NCBI GenBank assembly: GCA_017474235.1
Contig: JAFVIB010000002.1
Span: forward strand, 70,445-134,444
Direction of reading: 5' to 3'
DNA: 64,000 nt
Source of the DNA: Alistipes sp.
GTDB taxonomy: Bacteria > Bacteroidota > Bacteroidia > Bacteroidales > Rikenellaceae
In this document: positions 16,558-22,880 of the stretch, in pieces
Numbering within the stretch: position 1 is the stretch's first letter
How the letters are laid out: each line of letters begins with the position of its first letter
Notes under the pieces: generated by a model
Seen by the model: the letters and a program-made list of their open reading frames with translations, nothing else
Databases searched by the model: none
Told to the model about the DNA's origin: nothing
Made by a program: the position numbers and the translations under genes

Positions 16558-18435
16558 ATGGTTGATAACTACACCCAACAGATAGACAAGAGTATCGGAG
16601 CTCTGTTTGACAGTATTTCGCAGCGATTTTCGGCGGATGATATGGTGCGCATTGAGCGTGCTTACCTGCTTGCAGCAGAGGCTCATTCGGATCAGCGACG
16701 AAAGAGTGGCGAGCCATATATTATCCATCCTATTGCGGTAGCACGAATTATCGCTGAGGAGTTGGAGCTTGGTGCCAATCCTATTATTGCGGCATTTCTG
16801 CACGATGTGGTCGAGGATACCGACTACACAATCGAGCAGATTCGTGAGCGTTTTGGCGATGATGTAGCCTTTTTGGTGGCTGCGGTGACAAAGCAGAAGA
16901 AGGCGAAGTATCAGCACTCAAAGCAGGTGGATAATTTCCGTCAGATTCTCGAATCTGTAAGTTTTGATATTCACGCTCTGCTCATCAAACTTGCCGACCG
17001 ATTGCATAATATGCGAACTCTGAACAGTATGCGCTCGGATAAGCAGATGAAGATTGCCGGCGAGACCGACTACTTCTATGCACCTCTTGCAAACCGTTTG
17101 GGTCTCTACCATATCAAGAGTGAGTTGGAGAATCTCTCTTTCCGCTACCGCTGTCCGCGTGACTATTCGGAGTTGTCGCAGATGGTGGAGAATGATATTG
17201 AGCAGAAGCGTCCGCATATCGAGGCTTTTATTGCCAAGATGGAGGAGATTTTGACTGCAAAGGGTCTTACTGCCCGTACAGAGGTGCGCTATCGTCGTCC
17301 GTACAGCATCTGGCGTAAGATGCAGGCAAAGCATTGCGATTTTAACCATGTTCCGGGTCGCCACTATATCCGTGTCATCTATCCCGATAGTGACGCCTAT
17401 TCAGAGAAGGAGTACGCGCTCAAGATATATGCAGCCCTGACAGACTACTTCAAGGAACGCCCGGGAAGTGTGTCAAACTATATCAACGCACCAAAGGAGA
17501 ATGGCTACCAATCTTTCCATGTCAAGCTGCTGCGTGAGCAGGGCGTGTGGGAGGAGATACATATCTCTTCTGAGCGAATGGTGCGTAATTCTCGCCTCGG
17601 TTGTGCCGCTGAGCGCACTGAGCAGAATGTCCATAAGTGGTTAGAGAAACTGAAGGCTATTGTGCGTGCCGATGTGTCAATGAGTGGTATTCAATTTATG
17701 GAGGGCGTCACCTCGTCGTTCTATAATGACGATATTATGGTTTTCACTCCAAAGGGTCAGGGTGTCATTCTTCCTAAAAATGCCACAGCTCTCGATTTCG
17801 CCTTTGAAATCCATAGCGATATCGGTCGCCACGCCCACTATGCCCGTATCAATGGTCGCCTATGCTCTGTCAAGACCCAACTTAATCGCGGCGACTGCAT
17901 CGAAATTGGCACAAATGACTCTATCCACCCACAGACAGATTGGTTAGGCTCCGTGCGAACTTTCAAGGCGAAAAAGTTCCTCCACTCCTACCTCGCCTCT
18001 CAGCCAAAGCTCGAGTATATCCGTTGTAAACACTGTCACCCACTGCCTGGTGATGAGGTTGTCGGTTTTAAGAGCGAAGATGGTACTATCACTCTCCATA
18101 AGAGAGGCTGCTCTACCGCTATACGCTTAGCTTCAGAGGAGGGTGATTCTATCGTCAATGACCTTACAACCTTTGAGGAGCGCGAAGATATGCTCTATCC
18201 CGTGCGTATTCGCATCCGCGGTATAGATAGATACCACCTCCTCTCAGACCTTATCTATTGTATCACCGAGCAATTGCAGCTCTCCATGTGTGGACTCTCC
18301 ACCGAAACCGCAGACCATATCGGCGTCTGTACTATCGACTTCGAAATCCACTCCCTCGGCGAACTCGAGGCTGCTCTGCGATCTATTGAGGCTATTGATG
18401 GTGTGGATGAGGTGTCGAGGATAGATATCGAATAA
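16558..18435 (+). CDS. Long RelA/SpoT homologue (HD-SYN-TGS-ZFD-ACT) with probably inactive synthetase
   Basis: RKSGEPYIIHP, LHDVVEDT and KLADRLHNMRTL (HD domain); PKENGYQSFH; TGS 'VFTPKG...ATALDFAFEIHS'; CKHCHPLPGD; ACT-like end. Confidence 0.9.
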   Translation: MVDNYTQQIDKSIGALFDSISQRFSADDMVRIERAYLLAAEAHSDQRRKSGEPYIIHPIAVARIIAEELELGANPIIAAFLHDVVEDTDYTIEQIRERFGDDVAFLVAAVTKQKKAKYQHSKQVDNFRQILESVSFDIHALLIKLADRLHNMRTLNSMRSDKQMKIAGETDYFYAPLANRLGLYHIKSELENLSFRYRCPRDYSELSQMVENDIEQKRPHIEAFIAKMEEILTAKGLTARTEVRYRRPYSIWRKMQAKHCDFNHVPGRHYIRVIYPDSDAYSEKEYALKIYAALTDYFKERPGSVSNYINAPKENGYQSFHVKLLREQGVWEEIHISSERMVRNSRLGCAAERTEQNVHKWLEKLKAIVRADVSMSGIQFMEGVTSSFYNDDIMVFTPKGQGVILPKNATALDFAFEIHSDIGRHAHYARINGRLCSVKTQLNRGDCIEIGTNDSIHPQTDWLGSVRTFKAKKFLHSYLASQPKLEYIRCKHCHPLPGDEVVGFKSEDGTITLHKRGCSTAIRLASEEGDSIVNDLTTFEEREDMLYPVRIRIRGIDRYHLLSDLIYCITEQLQLSMCGLSTETADHIGVCTIDFEIHSLGELEAALRSIEAIDGVDEVSRIDIE

Positions 18436-18712
18436 TTTTATCGTCAAAATGATTTTATCGTGAAAATAGCACAACTACTGCCGCTAACCTTTTTCTCCTC
18501 AATGGGCAGTACAATTCAGTACAGCCCATCGACTCGAAAAACGCCGAGCGTGGTATTTGCACTATTTTGACGATAAAATGGGTGCAAGAAATACGCATAG
18601 TATGTCCCTTCGCGGGTATTTTTGCCGAGCGTGGCATCTACCGCATTTTGACGACAAAATGGTGCAGAGTGTGAGCAGAGTACAACAAAATGGGTGCAAA
18701 CTATGAGCGGAG
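18435..18712. repeat. Mosaic of palindromic elements: full 128-bp unit at 18452-18579, right half-unit at 18588-18660, and arm fragments
   Basis: Arms ATTTTATCGTGAAAATAGCAC / GCACTATTTTGACGATAAAAT; CCGCTA...GGGCAGTAC-AATTCA-GTACAGCCC...GCCGAGCG. Confidence 0.85.
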
Positions 18713-18829
18713 TATTTGACTCCCTAACCCCCTATATAATATAATGACGGCATTGAGTACTGTAGATTTGGAGTTTTCGATTTTTATTTGTAACTTGCAG
18801 TTGATTAGTACAATAATAGGTGTCGGGTT

Positions 18830-19267
18830 ATGAAGAAGTTGTTATATTTATTACTTGGTATCCTTGGTTTTACCGCTTGTGGTGAGGGCGGAGCCGGAGG
18901 TGGTATGATGTGCGAGTATGGTACGCCGACAGCAGATTTTACAGTCAAGGGCAAGGTTACCGATGCAGATGGCAAGCCTATTAAGGGTATTGAAATATCG
19001 TCTAAGGATCTCAGATCATTTATTGATGGCTCGGGCTTGAGTGCCGAGACAGCCGAGGATGGAACATTTGTAACCAATAAAATAAAGGAGTTTGGTGTAG
19101 GTGGCACGCTTGTCTTTACCGATACAGACGGCGAGGCGAATGGCGGAGAGTTTGTGACGCTTGAGAAGCAGATTAGTACTCTTCCGCAGAAGCAGATAAA
19201 GGATGGAGAGAGGTGGTATCGTGGCGAGTATGAGGTTACTGCCGATGTAAAACTTAAAAAGAGGTAG
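18830..19267 (+). CDS. Radical-SAM-associated lipoprotein (TIGR04134-like)
   Basis: Lipobox FTAC, Gly-rich linker, MCEYGTP motif, then a beta-rich domain; two genes upstream of the rSAM/SPASM gene. Confidence 0.85.
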   Translation: MKKLLYLLLGILGFTACGEGGAGGGMMCEYGTPTADFTVKGKVTDADGKPIKGIEISSKDLRSFIDGSGLSAETAEDGTFVTNKIKEFGVGGTLVFTDTDGEANGGEFVTLEKQISTLPQKQIKDGERWYRGEYEVTADVKLKKR

Positions 19268-19271
19268 AGTG

Positions 19272-19433
19272 ATGAGAAGATTGCTATATCTGCTATTGGC
19301 TCTATTGGGTTTTGTGGTTAGCTCATGCAGGGTTGAGGAGTATGGTTGCCCTCCTGTTGAGTATGATGAAGAGAAGGAGCATAGTCAGAATAATACAGAG
19401 CGTGTAGAGCCTCATTCGGGAGATGAGTATTGA
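19272..19433 (+). CDS. 53-aa lipopeptide with EYGCP motif (absent from the ORF track)
   Basis: Hand translation: MRRLLYLLLALLGFVVSSC-RVEEYGCPPVEYDEEKEHSQNNTERVEPHSGDEY*. Its signal peptide is paralogous to that of the upstream lipoprotein; it starts 4 nt after that gene's stop and ends 2 nt before the rSAM ATG. Confidence 0.85.
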   Translation: MRRLLYLLLALLGFVVSSCRVEEYGCPPVEYDEEKEHSQNNTERVEPHSGDEY

Positions 19434-19435
19434 TT

Positions 19436-20512
19436 ATGAAGGTCGATAAGTTGAGTTTAAGGCGTCGTTTGGCGCTCGAAATATGGCGTAAGTTAGAGGG
19501 TGACAATGTAAAGAGTCACCCTCTGCGCCAACTATTCTGGGAGTGTACGCTGCGTTGTAATCTCAACTGTCGCCACTGCGGCAGTGACTGCAAAACGGAG
19601 GCGGGCAAGAGAGATATGCCGCTAAATGACCTCCTTAAGGTGCTTGATAATATCTCGGCAAATACAGACCCTCATAAGGTATTTGTAATCATAACAGGTG
19701 GAGAGCCGCTGATGCGAGCTGACCTTGAGCAGTGTGGGCGGGCGATATACGACCGTGGTTTTCCGTGGGGTATGGTCACTAATGGTCTTGCTATGACTCC
19801 TGCCCGTTTTAAGCGTCTGCTTGCCTCGGGGATGCACACGGCAACAGTCTCTTTAGATGGTCTTGAGGAGGACCATAACTATATGCGTGGTAATAGTAAC
19901 AGCTTCCGCGCAGCCTCTGATGCTATTGCGATGATGGCGGCAGAGAGAGATTTTGTATTTGATGTCGTAACCTGCGTAACTCAGCGAAATATCGACAAGC
20001 TCGATACAATTAAGGAGCATCTGCTCTCACTCGGCTGTACACATTGGCGACTTTTTACCGTCTTTCCTGTCGGTCGTGGAGCTACGGATGAGAAGTTGCA
20101 ACTCACTTCGCAGCAGATGCGACAGTTGATGGACTATATTGTTGATACTCGTCGCGAGGGCAGAATATCTGTGCAGTACGGTTGTGAGGGATTTTTGGGT
20201 GCATACGAGGGCGAGGTGCGTGACCACTTTTTTGCTTGTCAGGCGGGTGTTACCGTCGGCTCGGTGCTTGTAGATGGCTCTATATCTGCTTGTGCAAGTA
20301 TCCGCGCAGATTACAATCAAGGCAATATCTATACTGATAACTTTTGGGATGTGTGGAACAACCGCTTTGAGCTATACCGCAACCGCGAATGGATGAAAAA
20401 GGATGGCTGTGCAGAGTGTAAGTTCTTCCGCTACTGCAAGGGCGGAGGTATGCACTTAAGAGATGGAGAGGGCAATTTATTGTTCTGTCATCTTGAGAAA
20501 TTGAGAGGATAA
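19436..20512 (+). CDS. Radical SAM/SPASM protein (TIGR04133-like)
   Basis: CNLNCRHC motif, ITGGEPL, SLDG and C-terminal SPASM cysteines (CQAG, SACASI, CAECKFFRYC); ATG at 19436 preferred to the TTG at 19430. Confidence 0.92.
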   Translation: MKVDKLSLRRRLALEIWRKLEGDNVKSHPLRQLFWECTLRCNLNCRHCGSDCKTEAGKRDMPLNDLLKVLDNISANTDPHKVFVIITGGEPLMRADLEQCGRAIYDRGFPWGMVTNGLAMTPARFKRLLASGMHTATVSLDGLEEDHNYMRGNSNSFRAASDAIAMMAAERDFVFDVVTCVTQRNIDKLDTIKEHLLSLGCTHWRLFTVFPVGRGATDEKLQLTSQQMRQLMDYIVDTRREGRISVQYGCEGFLGAYEGEVRDHFFACQAGVTVGSVLVDGSISACASIRADYNQGNIYTDNFWDVWNNRFELYRNREWMKKDGCAECKFFRYCKGGGMHLRDGEGNLLFCHLEKLRG

Positions 20513-20513
20513 C

Positions 20514-20543
20514 AAAAAGTGCCGCAAATTTGCGGCACTCTTT
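20514..20543. terminator. Bidirectional terminator between the rSAM gene and thiL
   Basis: AAAAAGTGCCGCA-AATT-TGCGGCACTCTTT between convergent genes. Confidence 0.7.
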
Positions 20544-21588
20544 ATTCGTTTACCTTCTTAACAAACCCCTGCGCCCTCAACTCTATCTCTCCACCGTCAG
20601 GAGTAACGAGGAAACATCCGGTCTGAGGCTCGGTAATGTGTCCGATAATATCTATGCAGCCGATAGAAGCAACCTTTTCGCGCATCTCAAGCGGAAGAGT
20701 AAAGAGCAATTCATAATCCTCACCACCATTGAGTGCTGCGGTAACAGGGTCTATGTGCATCTGCTCGCCCAACTCTGTGCATTGGCGAGCGATAGGCATA
20801 CGCTCAAGGTATATTCTCGCACCACAGATAGATGAGCGGCATATCTGCATAAGGTCAGATGCAAGGCCGTCACTAATATCAATCATAGATGTAGGCACAA
20901 CCTTCTCCTGAGCCAATGAGCGGACTATATCGTAACGGGCACGCGGCTTGAGGTAACGCTCCAAGAGGTACTCAAAGCCGTCAAACTGCGGTTTTTCGCC
21001 AACAAGACCCTCTAATACGCGGCTCTCACGCTGAAGCAGTTTGAGTCCGAGGAATGGCGCACCAAGGCTGCCTGTAATGCAGATAAGGTCATTGACCTTC
21101 GCACCACTGCGATAGACCACAGCCTCCTTCTTTGTGCGACCTACAGCTGTAATATTTATTACAAGACCATTGATTGATGCCGTTGTATCTCCACCAACCA
21201 AATCGACCTCAGCCTCGCGACAAGCAAACTCAACACCTGAGTAGAAGTCTTTCAGAAACTCGACCGAGATTTTTGAAGATATAGAGAGCGAAATGGTTAT
21301 CTGCTCTGGCAGGGCATTCATAGCAACAATATCGCTAATACCCTTTGTTACAGCCTTATAACCCAAGTGCTTTGGCGGGAAATATGTTAAATCGAAGTCT
21401 ATACCTTCAACCATAGTGTCGGTAGATACAAGCATAGCAGTACTCTTCGATGCCTCAATCACTGCGGCATCGTCACCAACCCCCTTTATAGTTGTCTTAC
21501 GATTAGACTTAAATGGCTCTGTCAGGTAGTCTATCAATCCGAACTCGCCCAACTCTGCAATCTCTGTTCTCCCTTTTATTTTTCCCAT
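20542..21588 (-). CDS. thiL: Thiamine-monophosphate kinase
   Basis: GVGDDAAVI, STDTMVEGIDF, LVGGDT, MIDISDGL and GGEDYELLFT motifs; start at the ATG of MGKIKGR. Confidence 0.95.
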   Translation of the reverse strand: MGKIKGRTEIAELGEFGLIDYLTEPFKSNRKTTIKGVGDDAAVIEASKSTAMLVSTDTMVEGIDFDLTYFPPKHLGYKAVTKGISDIVAMNALPEQITISLSISSKISVEFLKDFYSGVEFACREAEVDLVGGDTTASINGLVINITAVGRTKKEAVVYRSGAKVNDLICITGSLGAPFLGLKLLQRESRVLEGLVGEKPQFDGFEYLLERYLKPRARYDIVRSLAQEKVVPTSMIDISDGLASDLMQICRSSICGARIYLERMPIARQCTELGEQMHIDPVTAALNGGEDYELLFTLPLEMREKVASIGCIDIIGHITEPQTGCFLVTPDGGEIELRAQGFVKKVNE

Positions 21589-21710
21589 AGCGGATATTTT
21601 TTTGCAAAGGTACACTTTTTTTTGAAGTATATGAGTTTTTTTGTGGGCATAAGTGGTATAACCTTACGAAAAAATACTTAACTTCGTGCAAACTACTTAT
21701 CCCTATTCGT

Positions 21711-22880
21711 ATGAAAAAACTATTGCTACTCTTTGTTGCTCTATTTTGTTTGGCTTTTGCGAATGCTCAGGAACGATACGAGGTGACATCTAAATCGGCT
21801 TTGAATATTCGTAGTAGTGCCTCTGCCGGCAGTACTGTGCTTGGAACGGTGCAAAGCGGGTCGAAGGTAGATGTATATGAGGTATATGGTGAGTGGGCGA
21901 AGATTAAATACAATGGTCGCTTCGCTTATGTCAGTAGCAAATATCTGAAAAAGTGCAGTGCAGAAGCCTCACAAAATCAAAAGGAAGAGAATAAGAACTC
22001 CTTTTTGGGTAAGTTTGATAGTTTTGTAAGGCAATATGTGACTTATGATATAGATTGGCTGATATTCGTGATATTCGGATTATCTGTGGTATTAGCTATT
22101 GTCCGCGGTGTGCATCGAGATGGTAGAAGATATTTACGCAGTGGTAAATATATCTTTCATCTGATATCGTTTGTTATCATATGTGTTGCAGAGATTGTAT
22201 ATTTCTTGAGAATGGGTAGCGAGACGACTTGGTTCTGCATGCCGAGCAATGTCGGATGGATAGGTGCTATTGTCGGCTTTCTTGCTTTAGGATGGATGGT
22301 GTACAATCAGATAATGTGGTTTATAGATACTTTGCTTGATATCAGATACAATGCAGGCGACTTTGATATGCGCATAGGTATATACTCGTGGCCTATTGCT
22401 GTAGTTGTAGGGGTAATAGTGAGTCTATTCGAGTGGGAAGGTGCTCTTGAGTGGGTTGTGATTATTCTTGGAATTTGCCAGCTGATTCAGATAGTTCTGA
22501 TAATTGTAGGAGTTTCGTCAAGGGGTGGATTCTTATACTCATTGCTGGTAACTGCAATATATCTGATAGGTGCAGTATCTACGCTGTTTCTCCTATTGTA
22601 TTTTGTGGCATTGGTTATAGTAGTTGCCATTATTGGCTTTTTTATTATGGCATTCTTGAGTGGTGGCTCTCGTAGTAGCTCTAGCAGTGAATCTAGCAGT
22701 GAATCCAGTAGTAGCTCAGAAGATGATAGCTCTAGCTGGAAGAAAGGGTATTTAGACTATACAGATGGATTAGGTCGCATAGAGGGTAAATTTAGCGACG
22801 AAAATACATTCCACGAGTACGGCGGCGGAACCTACGACAGGCAAGGTAACGGAACCTGGAAGAAGAGGGAGTACTGGTAG
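21711..22880 (+). CDS. SH3b-domain polytopic membrane protein of unknown function
   Basis: Signal peptide; SH3_3-like 'ALNIRSSAS...GEWAKIKYNGRFAYVSSKYL'; about 7 hydrophobic segments; Ser-rich linker; short aromatic/Gly-rich tail. Confidence 0.7.
   Translation: MKKLLLLFVALFCLAFANAQERYEVTSKSALNIRSSASAGSTVLGTVQSGSKVDVYEVYGEWAKIKYNGRFAYVSSKYLKKCSAEASQNQKEENKNSFLGKFDSFVRQYVTYDIDWLIFVIFGLSVVLAIVRGVHRDGRRYLRSGKYIFHLISFVIICVAEIVYFLRMGSETTWFCMPSNVGWIGAIVGFLALGWMVYNQIMWFIDTLLDIRYNAGDFDMRIGIYSWPIAVVVGVIVSLFEWEGALEWVVIILGICQLIQIVLIIVGVSSRGGFLYSLLVTAIYLIGAVSTLFLLLYFVALVIVVAIIGFFIMAFLSGGSRSSSSSESSSESSSSSEDDSSSWKKGYLDYTDGLGRIEGKFSDENTFHEYGGGTYDRQGNGTWKKREYW

Follow-up and report, generated by a model that had tools for sequence, protein, structure and literature searches.

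We propose that a family of radical SAM/SPASM enzymes from Bacteroidales and the small lipoproteins encoded beside them constitute a two-component protein-maturation system, in which the enzyme would modify a conserved Tyr-Gly site of the pre-lipoproteins before their export, with the signal peptide probably serving as the leader; we give this proposal about an even chance of being correct. The instance analysed here lies in a 64,000-nucleotide stretch of DNA from Alistipes sp. (hereafter the window) and, judged from its sequence, is an ordinary member of the catalogued TIGR04133/TIGR04134 pair, which is widespread in Bacteroidales. The window pair resembles the catalogued one in being adjacent, in scoring above the cutoffs of both models and in belonging to a Bacteroidales genome. 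The two families (rSAM_w_lipo and lipo_with_rSAM) are “hypothetical equivalogs” recognized by co-occurrence only, to which neither a function nor a motif has been attached.

Organization and conservation of the cassette

Three ORFs coding for products of 145, 53 and 358 amino acids, all on the forward strand, occupy positions 18830-20512 of the window. Neighbouring genes are separated by gaps or overlaps of 1-4 nt, in agreement with the tightly packed three-gene operon described in a first-pass annotation of this DNA, and 169 nt separate the stop codon of the first gene from the downstream start of the enzyme gene. The features of the locus are as follows:

18830..19267, + strand: lipoprotein 1 (ORF1), 145 aa, TIGR04134 “radical SAM-associated putative lipoprotein”
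18830..18880, + strand: signal peptide and lipobox of lipoprotein 1 (M1-C17), with L12-G13-F14 just before Cys17
18914..18940, + strand: candidate modification site of lipoprotein 1, E29-Y30-G31-T32-P33-T34-A35-D36-F37, an X-Y-G-x-P-x3-aromatic motif placed by alignment and AlphaFold2 model
19272..19433, + strand: mini-lipoprotein (ORF2), 53 aa, with an alternative GTG start at 19269
19338..19364, + strand: candidate modification site of the mini-lipoprotein, E23-Y24-G25-C26-P27-P28-V29-E30-Y31, same motif
19395-19430, + strand: conserved C-terminal tail of the mini-lipoprotein, TERVEPHSGDEY, with synonymous variation
19436..20512, + strand: radical SAM/SPASM enzyme (ORF3), 358 aa, TIGR04133, with an alternative TTG start at 19430
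19556..19579, + strand: CX3CX2C radical-SAM cluster motif (C41/C45/C48), within the conserved WECTLRCNLNCRHCGSDC
20183..20488, + strand: SPASM auxiliary-cluster region (C250, C268, C286, C325, C328, C334, C351)
20518..20539, + strand: terminator-like hairpin with a 9-bp stem (6 GC pairs) and a T-rich tail behind it

The hairpin marks the end of the operon and separates the cassette from a convergent thiL-like gene. An Rfam search of positions 18300-20700 returned no match.

The enzyme matches NCBIfam TIGR04133 with 567.9 bits (cutoff 425) and lipoprotein 1 matches TIGR04134 with 108.1 bits (cutoff 39.8), so that the family assignment made at first pass stands, both scores exceeding the curated cutoffs. 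Pfam identifies Radical_SAM and SPASM domains in the enzyme, the latter spanning residues 268-329, and both the three cysteines of the CX3CX2C motif and the seven C-terminal SPASM cysteines are 100% conserved among 79 orthologues, a combination that is the hallmark of peptide and protein maturases. As it lacks a signal peptide we take the enzyme to be cytoplasmic, and as only about 35 residues precede its cluster motif there is no space in it for an RRE domain. Our search for the enzyme gave at least 564 matches in as many Bacteroidales genomes at species level, and from these matches come the 80 Bacteroidales loci studied here, in which the orthologues share 61-88% identity. Beyond its own family its best matches include MftC (TIGR03962; 128.8 bits over the full length, cutoff 265), AhbD (128 bits) and NirJ2 (125 bits), and it scores 109 bits against the splicease family TIGR04103; being about equally far from all four, it is not assigned a particular chemistry by its relationships. 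Scores against the sactisynthase and ranthipeptide families are low (65-77 bits), and a sequence search against the PDB gave generic radical SAM matches only (GDGT-MAS, BlsE, SkfB, MoaA, SuiB and CteB).

At no fewer than 76 of the 80 enzyme loci a motif-bearing lipoprotein adjoins the enzyme and, in the reverse direction, all three lipoproteins that were looked up adjoin an enzyme, which bears out the co-occurrence on which the first-pass annotation relied. This adjacency spans Alistipes, Parabacteroides, Phocaeicola/Bacteroides and Prevotella, with the lipoprotein gene lying either upstream or downstream of the enzyme; at two loci (L030 and L073) no lipoprotein adjoins the enzyme. When all ORFs of 150 aa or longer from the 80 loci were clustered, no third conserved gene emerged and, in particular, no conserved dedicated protease, exporter or RRE gene. 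Together with the short N-terminus of the enzyme, this sets the loci apart from canonical RiPP clusters with their leader protease and/or exporter and RRE. It fits the earlier suggestion that the host Sec, Lgt and LspA machinery takes over the roles of RiPP protease and exporter. Our literature search on TIGR04133, TIGR04134 and SPASM enzymes with Bacteroidetes lipoproteins, which did not cover the 2022 splicease survey (Scott et al.) that may include this family, found nothing relevant. The single mention of TIGR04134, in a review of the T9SS, uses the accession for “type B CTD”; it has no bearing on this family and was probably written in error for a different accession.

Signal peptides and a shared motif in the partner lipoproteins

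Both lipoproteins of the window carry alike signal peptides ending in a lipobox Cys, as had been noted at first pass, and our comparisons add that L12-G13-F14 is common to the two. Lipoprotein 1 begins MKKLLYLLLGILGFTAC and continues GEGGAGGGMMCEYGTPTADF...; in its signal peptide, G13 never varies in alignment A1, where L12 and C17 each reach a conservation of 90% or more. Across the family, [LM]G[FY] is present in 96% of 105 signal peptides, whereas none of the 41 further lipoproteins predicted at the same loci has it. Homology alone could explain part of this likeness.

Lipoprotein 1 consists, in order, of the signal peptide, a Gly-rich tether, the XYGxP motif and a predicted transthyretin/CarboxypepD_reg-like beta-sandwich; Pfam PF13620 gives a weak match in it. 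Its AlphaFold2 model, built with a 64-sequence alignment (a single-sequence run reached a pLDDT of only 42), has a mean pLDDT of 85.8, with residues 31-145 above 90 and the beta-sandwich beginning at residue 34. The stretch behind the lipobox, earlier described as unstructured, is indeed predicted to be disordered by this model (pLDDT below 50 for residues 13-26; mean of 46 for the block 21-30), which places the candidate site at the junction of the disordered tether and beta-strand 1. Foldseek searches against the PDB recovered generic transthyretin-like, dioxygenase-core and teneurin beta-sandwiches only, at TM scores of about 0.45-0.5, and hence yielded no functional lead for this protein. 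The alignment of its family displays an invariant DxDGxxNGGxF loop within the beta-sandwich.

The mini-lipoprotein, which begins MRRLLYLLLALLGFVVSSC and continues RVEEYGCPPVEY..., has a signal peptide with its lipobox at Cys19 and is devoid of a folded domain. It matches no family model, neither TIGR04133 nor TIGR04134 covering ORF2. It is kept as a lipoprotein ORF in the Alistipes relatives (loci L001-L007, L009 and L012), one of which (L004) has lost the motif, and public assemblies annotate such a mini-lipoprotein as a gene, as in locus L083, where a 54-aa gene has been called.

The conserved unit common to these proteins is X-Y-G-x-P-x3-[Y/F], where X is M, E, A, L or C. The first-pass annotation had staked its proposal on EYG being conserved among orthologous precursors: the alignments uphold Y-G, and with it P, as essentially invariant, whereas the Glu varies. 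Every member of the 64-sequence alignment has Y30, and conservation is at least 90% both at G31 and at P33; the motif is found in all full-length close homologues examined and follows the lipobox Cys in nearly all of about 100 representatives with less than 50% mutual identity. Within the window the pattern YG.[PA]...[YFW] matches the two real ORFs and three short spurious frames. On these sequence comparisons, chance is ruled out as the source of the motif shared by the two lipoproteins.

Across the partner lipoproteins as a whole, it is the motif and not the domain that is the sole feature common to every one of them. Domain-less mini-lipoproteins of several lineages carry it, peptides of 62 aa bear it at their extreme C-terminus (ending MYGVAPRNYIPGR), some members have it directly on the lipobox Cys (AC-YGPAPRNY), others have tandem copies in overlapping heptads (EYGCPYMEYGCPNVHY), and in forms with two or three domains it precedes each domain. 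The invariance of Y and near-invariance of G and P, the variability of X and the location of Tyr30 in a low-confidence stretch ahead of the domain argue for a role in recognition or chemistry over one in packing. Part of the motif could be structural, since it stands ahead of every domain and the aromatic residue seven positions after the Tyr (“+7”) lies in beta-strand 1.

A proposed maturation pathway and its alternatives

Our observations concern the order of the genes, the families they belong to, the conservation of the motif, the signature in the signal peptides and the lack of further conserved partners; from them we infer that the enzyme acts on the lipoproteins. Under our proposal, the cytoplasmic TIGR04133 enzyme would engage newly made pre-lipoproteins ahead of export, recognizing, in the flexible tether immediately behind the lipobox Cys, the X-Y-G-x-P-x3-[Y/F] site and probably also, as a leader, the unusually conserved L-L-G-F signal peptide. 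A radical reaction would then take place at the invariant Tyr-Gly, after which the general Sec, Lgt and LspA machinery would export and lipidate the product and remove its signal peptide. What would remain tethered to the envelope is either a modified peptide or a small protein with a beta-sandwich. As for the chemistry, splicease-like excision of tyramine at X-Y-G, leaving an alpha-keto-beta-amide, is the leading candidate.

A rather unlikely alternative retains the same enzyme and substrates with a different chemistry, namely a Tyr-centred C-C or C-O cross-link within the motif (triceptide, PqqE or RrrB-type), for instance from the Tyr to the “+7” aromatic or to a neighbouring side chain, or else a mass-silent change such as epimerisation. 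Cross-links are indeed what most characterised SPASM peptide maturases form, the enzyme is as near to MftC, a Tyr-modifying SPASM enzyme, as to the spliceases, and the “+7” aromatic is kept even in domain-less minis (EYGCPPVEY, MYGVAPRNY, MYGTPNGEF). However, this aromatic is not strictly conserved (MYGTPHADV, MYGVPRIDT, MYGTPHVDL), lies inside beta-strand 1 in the forms with a domain and in the tandem repeats is simply the next Tyr, whereas the invariant pair is exactly the Y-G that a splicease requires. A thioether of the sactipeptide or ranthipeptide kind, or the Tyr/Cys link suggested at first pass, would draw on the Cys found within two residues of the Tyr in both window precursors (MMCEYG, EYGCP). 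Among homologues, however, position +2 is mostly T, S, A or V, at position -2 a D, V, P or L is frequent, and the corresponding enzyme families are those with the low scores given above; with neither Cys position conserved, we rejected Cys-based cross-links, which we regard as exceedingly improbable.

The remaining alternatives deny that the lipoproteins are substrates. If the enzyme made a small molecule or cofactor, in the manner of AhbD or NirJ, the lipoproteins might serve in the envelope as its binders, carriers or sensors, and indeed the heme-modifying AhbD and NirJ2 are among the best non-self family matches and the invariant DxDGxxNGGxF loop could hold a ligand or metal. Yet domain-less minis, which have no means of binding a ligand, still have the motif and still adjoin the enzyme, tandem copies of the motif occur, no conserved biosynthetic or transport genes lie nearby, and the invariant residues sit in a disordered tether, as is typical of a peptide substrate; we therefore consider this distinctly unlikely. 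In a reading that we think very unlikely, the LGF signal peptide and the motif would have no connection with radical chemistry and would instead direct sorting, for instance surface export, or serve a structural purpose such as capping the beta-sandwich at its N-terminus, and the enzyme would be linked to the lipoproteins in some other way. The motif does abut strand 1 and recur before each domain of multi-domain forms, and in many members acidic residues follow the lipobox Cys, reminiscent of Bacteroidetes surface-export signals. It is, however, retained where there is no domain and is missing from the 41 other lipoproteins of the same loci, and its strict pairing with a SPASM enzyme would go without another explanation.

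Relationship to spliceases

Of the chemistries compatible with maturation at the Tyr-Gly site, tyramine splicing is placed first by analogy, because validated splice tags also read X-Y-G-x-P: those of PlpXY take the form PIRP[L/G]YGLPI, and Y-G-x-P is present in both native and engineered tags (PMC10533398). The window cassette resembles the spliceotide systems (PlpX/PlpY/PlpA) in combining a SPASM radical SAM enzyme with a substrate in which an invariant Y-G follows an X that varies across the family. It differs from them in several respects. The enzyme scores 109 bits against the PlpX family (IPR026482/TIGR04103), far below the cutoff of 725, and the cassette is devoid of PlpY, transporter and protease genes, with no accessory gene of any kind conserved; moreover, its products would be lipid-anchored and in some cases folded proteins. 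In place of a Nif11/NHLP or other helical RiPP leader the precursors have a Sec/SPII signal peptide at the N-terminus. Binary splicease systems without a Y protein do exist, and in these a leader helix activates the enzyme (PMC11414181); the helix of the signal peptide might substitute for such a leader.

A direct comparison came from a cyanobacterial locus (L081) obtained by a protein-based scan, after a DNA-level search with a degenerate pattern of the PlpA3 core had matched no genome contigs. Here a Nif11 precursor ending ...NVIYGSPW... lies beside a bona fide TIGR04103 enzyme (806.7 bits, cutoff 725). This splicease scores 143 bits against TIGR04133, more than it does against MftC (107) or PqqE (90), and aligns with the window enzyme over the full length with 26% identity (E = 3e-31).

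The alpha-keto-beta-amide group is a known protease-inhibiting warhead. Taken to its full extent, the splicing hypothesis would have gut Bacteroidales excise tyramine from pre-lipoproteins, with the Sec/SPII signal peptide doubling as leader, to produce lipid-anchored alpha-keto-beta-amide protease inhibitors whose specificity is set by X (Met, Glu, Ala or Leu), a scenario that we put forward tentatively and hold to be unlikely as a whole. Were splicing confirmed, abundant commensals would be displaying ketoamide protease-inhibitor groups on their envelope, with a bearing on their survival among host and microbial proteases; hundreds of species would carry, on or beneath the cell surface, the first ribosomal beta-amino-acid products of a lipoprotein class, and the general secretion machinery would for the first time be seen to stand in for the RiPP protease and exporter. 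The enzymes would further offer compact, accessory-free spliceases for protein engineering. Even the broader maturation model, if true, would add a new way of modifying exported proteins post-translationally, in which a lipoprotein tether is edited before Sec with the signal peptide as leader. Carriers of the enzyme include major human and ruminant gut genera, and the cassette is a very simple two-gene system for the bench with short natural substrates of 53-62 aa.

Comparison with other radical SAM/SPASM systems

One precedent in overall logic is the anSME of Bacteroides, which matures Sec-exported sulfatases before their export without a dedicated exporter or protease. As in our proposal, a cytoplasmic radical SAM/SPASM enzyme acts on a short motif close to the N-terminus of a protein with a signal peptide. 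The window enzyme scores only 58.9 bits against the anSME model TIGR03942 (cutoff 349), the C/S-x-P-x-R sulfatase motif is absent from both window precursors and, in contrast to anSME, the target residue would be a Tyr and the substrates lipoproteins. The QhpD-QhpC pair of quinohemoprotein amine dehydrogenase is comparable in that a radical SAM/SPASM enzyme acts on a small protein, rather than a short peptide, whose later place of work is outside the cytoplasm. QhpD makes Cys-Asp/Glu thioethers, and QhpC belongs to an enzyme complex that has its own peptidase and transporter; the window cassette shows none of these features. MftC is similar as a Tyr-directed SPASM enzyme that ranks among the best non-self family matches. 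The window enzyme falls short of its cutoff, and no MftB/RRE partner gene accompanies it. MftC requires a C-terminal Tyr in its substrate, which ends in Val-Tyr, whereas the conserved Tyr of the lipoproteins is internal. We also rejected an MftC-like chemistry at a C-terminal Tyr: the mini-lipoprotein of the window ends in ...DEY, and its orthologues end in ...IYE, ...EQE and ...RLE.

The operon and its enzyme

The first-pass annotation described a tightly packed operon of two lipoproteins and an rSAM/SPASM enzyme and pointed to the TIGR04134 and TIGR04133 families; this description is correct as to coordinates and to the assignment of both families. Three co-directional ORFs occupy 18830-20512 (+), in the following setting:

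16558-18435, +, relA/spoT-type gene, upstream of ORF1
18830-19267, +, ORF1, lipoprotein of 145 aa; begins MKKLLYLLLGILGFTAC, then GEGGAGGGMMCEYGTPTADFTVKGKVTD...
19272-19433, +, ORF2, mini-lipoprotein of 53 aa; alternative start GTG at 19269; begins MRRLLYLLLALLGFVVSSC, then RVEEYGCPPVEYDEEKEHSQNNTERVEPHSGDEY
19436-20512, +, ORF3, radical SAM/SPASM enzyme of 358 aa; alternative TTG at 19430
20542-21615, -, thiL-like gene, convergent, downstream of ORF3

ORF1 and ORF2 are spaced by 1-4 nt, the ORF2-ORF3 junction is either a 4-nt overlap or a 2-nt gap, and 6 nt past the ORF3 stop lies a GC-rich hairpin of 9 bp with a T-rich tail. On NCBIfam TIGR04133, 'radical SAM/SPASM protein' (cutoff 425), ORF3 reaches 567.9 bits, and Pfam Radical_SAM and SPASM match it too. 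On TIGR04134, 'radical SAM-associated putative lipoprotein' (cutoff 39.8), ORF1 reaches 108.1 bits, with a weak Pfam match to CarboxypepD_reg; no NCBIfam model matched ORF2. By these profiles the gene pair belongs to the catalogued TIGR04133/TIGR04134 system and is typical of it.

The nearest genomic relatives of the enzyme, among the matches listed, come from Alistipes MAGs (88% identity), so that the window most probably derives from an Alistipes/Rikenellaceae genome. We collected 80 loci around orthologous enzymes (61-88% identity) out of at least 564 confirmed matches. The three CX3CX2C cysteines (C41/45/48) and the seven SPASM cysteines of the C-terminal part (C250, 268, 286, 325, 328, 334 and 351) are invariant across 79 orthologues; outside these sets, C52, C100 and C180 are kept in all and C37 in 99% (window 19544-19975). 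Two of these four extra cysteines flank the radical-SAM motif, in WEC-TLRCNLNCRHCGSDC. Given its hydrophilic N-terminus and lack of a signal peptide, the enzyme should be cytoplasmic.

A shared motif is the constant companion of the enzyme

We examined the motif, which the first-pass annotation had read as a shared EYG[T/C]P, in the 80 enzyme loci, in 120 close ORF1 homologues and in about 100 small representatives with <50% mutual identity, these distant representatives being gathered with a profile of 64 of the 120 close homologues. All full-length close homologues examined carry X-Y-G-x-P-x-x-x-[Y/F] behind the lipobox Cys (E29-F37 in ORF1); in the 64-sequence alignment no residue other than Tyr occupies position 30, with G31 and P33 conserved to 90% or more, and in the distant representatives Y-G-x-P is nearly universal, with the +7 aromatic usual, not strict. 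As X varies among M, E, A, L, V and C and the residue following the motif Gly among T, S, A, V, C and M, neither the Glu of EYG nor the motif Cys of ORF2 is conserved; what survives of the earlier reading is a real common motif with Y-G(-x-P) kept. No real ORF in the window besides ORF1 and ORF2 carries the pattern.

Of the 80 loci, at least 76 have a motif lipoprotein adjoining the enzyme, and only L030 and L073 are without one nearby; L010, though cut off, retains a motif lipoprotein's C-terminus. Loci of Alistipes, Parabacteroides and, mostly, Prevotella have these lipoproteins upstream of the enzyme, those of Phocaeicola/Bacteroides downstream. Conversely, three of three diverse lipoproteins traced in public assemblies stand directly upstream of a gene for a 358-359-aa Radical_SAM+SPASM protein, one of them in a run of four consecutive lipoprotein genes; copy number per locus ranges from one to four. 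Mini-lipoproteins lacking a folded domain recur in several lineages, including the Alistipes type seen in the window, 62-aa peptides ending MYGVAPRNYIPGR, Prevotella forms that use the lipobox Cys as X (FMAC-YGPAPRNY) and one with two motifs. Several single-domain proteins bear overlapping tandem heptads of the motif (EYGCPYMEYGCPNVHY, MYGSPVLMYGVPSAEY), and two- or three-domain forms of 263-377 aa have their own X-Y-G-x-P site ahead of each domain (multi-domain or tandem-heptad representatives: P0121, P0124, P0127, P0131, P0134, P0138, P0158, P0169 and P0176). From these comparisons, the constant companion of the enzyme is the motif, not the domain. Clustering of ORFs of at least 150 aa in the 80 loci recovered no other gene conserved across genera: no protease, transporter or RRE-type partner.

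At one locus, L064 3926-5572 (Prevotella aff. ruminicola Tc2-24), no stop separates the enzyme from its downstream lipoprotein, and the two share one open frame (...FCHLHRLNSENNKREYHMKVRFNYWYN...). The frame may simply run through a short spacer by chance, or enzyme and substrate may be naturally fused.

Predicted structure of ORF1 and the signal peptide as a proposed leader

An AlphaFold2 model of ORF1 built from the 64-sequence alignment is confident overall (mean pLDDT 85.8), with residues 13-26 disordered (pLDDT <50), residues 31-145 above 90 and a beta-sandwich beginning at residue 34. These boundaries place the motif exactly at the junction of a Gly-rich tether and the domain: Tyr30 falls within the residue 21-30 block (mean pLDDT 46) ahead of the confidently modelled domain, and Phe37 lies within strand 1. 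Foldseek with this model returned only generic transthyretin/CarboxypepD_reg-like sandwiches. The domain has an invariant D98-x-D100-G-x-x-N104-G-G-x-F108 loop (window 19121-19153) and an invariant W129 in the same alignment; the loop is reminiscent of those that bind metals or ligands.

Signal peptides ordinarily drift freely. In this family, 96% of the 105 members (96 distinct signal peptides) have [L/M]-G-[F/Y] 1-4 residues ahead of the lipobox Cys, as against 0 of the 41 other lipoproteins predicted in the same loci; the signature is kept in the minis and in proteins <50% identical, although part of the likeness is due to shared ancestry. As the enzyme must act in the cytoplasm, with the signal peptide still attached and 2-28 residues from the motif, we infer that the signal peptide doubles as a recognition leader, and the enzyme would modify the precursor before signal peptide removal. 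In the anSME-sulfatase system of Bacteroides a cytoplasmic SPASM enzyme edits a motif of a protein that still has its signal peptide and has yet to be exported, and no dedicated exporter is involved, offering a functional analogy to the window enzyme and its putative substrates; QhpD-QhpC, where the substrate is a small protein, offers another.

The Alistipes minis have a second conserved C-terminal element, S/N-T-[DE]-R-[VI]-[EA]-P-[NH] (window 19395-19430; also L001-L004, L007 and L009), whose third codon positions vary synonymously, indicating selection at the protein level. This tail is kept in the L004 mini, from which the XYGxP motif and the LGF signature are both gone.

Candidate chemistry

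Spliceotide systems are the nearest analogy for the motif. Tyramine spliceases excise C8H9NO at X-Y-G to give an alpha-keto-beta-amide (PMC11414181, PMC9811515), a substrate logic common with the present system in that X is variable and Y-G fixed. Furthermore, native and engineered PlpXY splice tags, PIRP[L/G]YGLPI, contain Y-G-x-P (PMC10533398, Table 1, Table S3). Using the PlpA3 sequence from that source we found a cyanobacterial locus (L081) whose Nif11 precursor ends ...RFNVIYGSPWKPWPWPF and whose adjoining enzyme scores 806.7 bits on TIGR04103, the PlpX family (cutoff 725). This enzyme aligns end to end with that of the window (26% identity, E = 3e-31) and scores 143 bits on TIGR04133, above MftC (107) and PqqE (90) and below TIGR03913 (410), AhbD (172) and NirJ2 (158). 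In binary spliceases, which lack a PlpY partner, the leader helix is the activator (PMC11414181), and by analogy the signal-peptide helix could act likewise here.

Against this, the window enzyme reaches only 109 bits on TIGR04103 and is about equally close to MftC (129), AhbD (128), NirJ2 (125) and TIGR04053 (132), so that enzyme relationships do not single out splicing; the system falls outside the splicease, anSME and MftC families by their membership tests. We therefore regard tyramine splicing as the leading single chemical candidate, albeit a rather improbable one, and a Tyr cross-link or other Tyr-directed reaction may take its place. Cys-based links, among them the Tyr/Cys cross-link posited in the first-pass annotation, are unlikely, as neither Cys near the motif is conserved. 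Of that earlier interpretation, the shared Y-G motif and its obligate-type pairing with the enzyme are supported, and the conserved Glu and the Cys links are not. In our preferred model, to which we give an even chance, these genes constitute a two-gene maturation system for lipoproteins whose chemistry is putative; the system is widespread and compact, and is found in dominant gut bacteria.

Literature searches, whose coverage did not extend to Scott et al. 2022, found no paper on TIGR04133 or TIGR04134. That study, as summarised in PMC10849128, screened all rSAM-SPASM proteins for YG-rich neighbours (189 genera, 27 pairs validated) and may already have considered this family. As far as checked, these computational results have apparently not been described before: the motif in its general form, its occurrence in minis and tandem repeats, the signature of the signal peptides, the lack of a third partner gene and the Y-G-x-P parallel with splice tags.

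Genomic flanks

Repeats crowd the intergenic region upstream of the operon (18436-18800): a near-palindrome of 15 nt (TTTTATCGTCAAAAT / ATTTTGACGAYAAAA) recurs several times, a direct repeat of 39 nt is present twice (18543-18581 and 18624-18662, 82% identity), and there are repeats of 34 nt as well. The region has no Rfam match; the repeats may serve as operators or constitute a small repeat element. The thiL-like gene adjoins the operon in 15 loci, and its orientation varies among close Alistipes relatives (+ in L001, L003 and L004; - in the window, L002, L006 and L009-L011); relA/spoT is inverted relative to the window in L083-L085. These flips suggest repeated local inversions around the operon. 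Further downstream, 21711-22880 (+) codes for a 389-aa protein in which a signal peptide and an SH3-like N-terminal region are combined with several hydrophobic segments and, towards the C-terminus, an acidic stretch rich in Ser.
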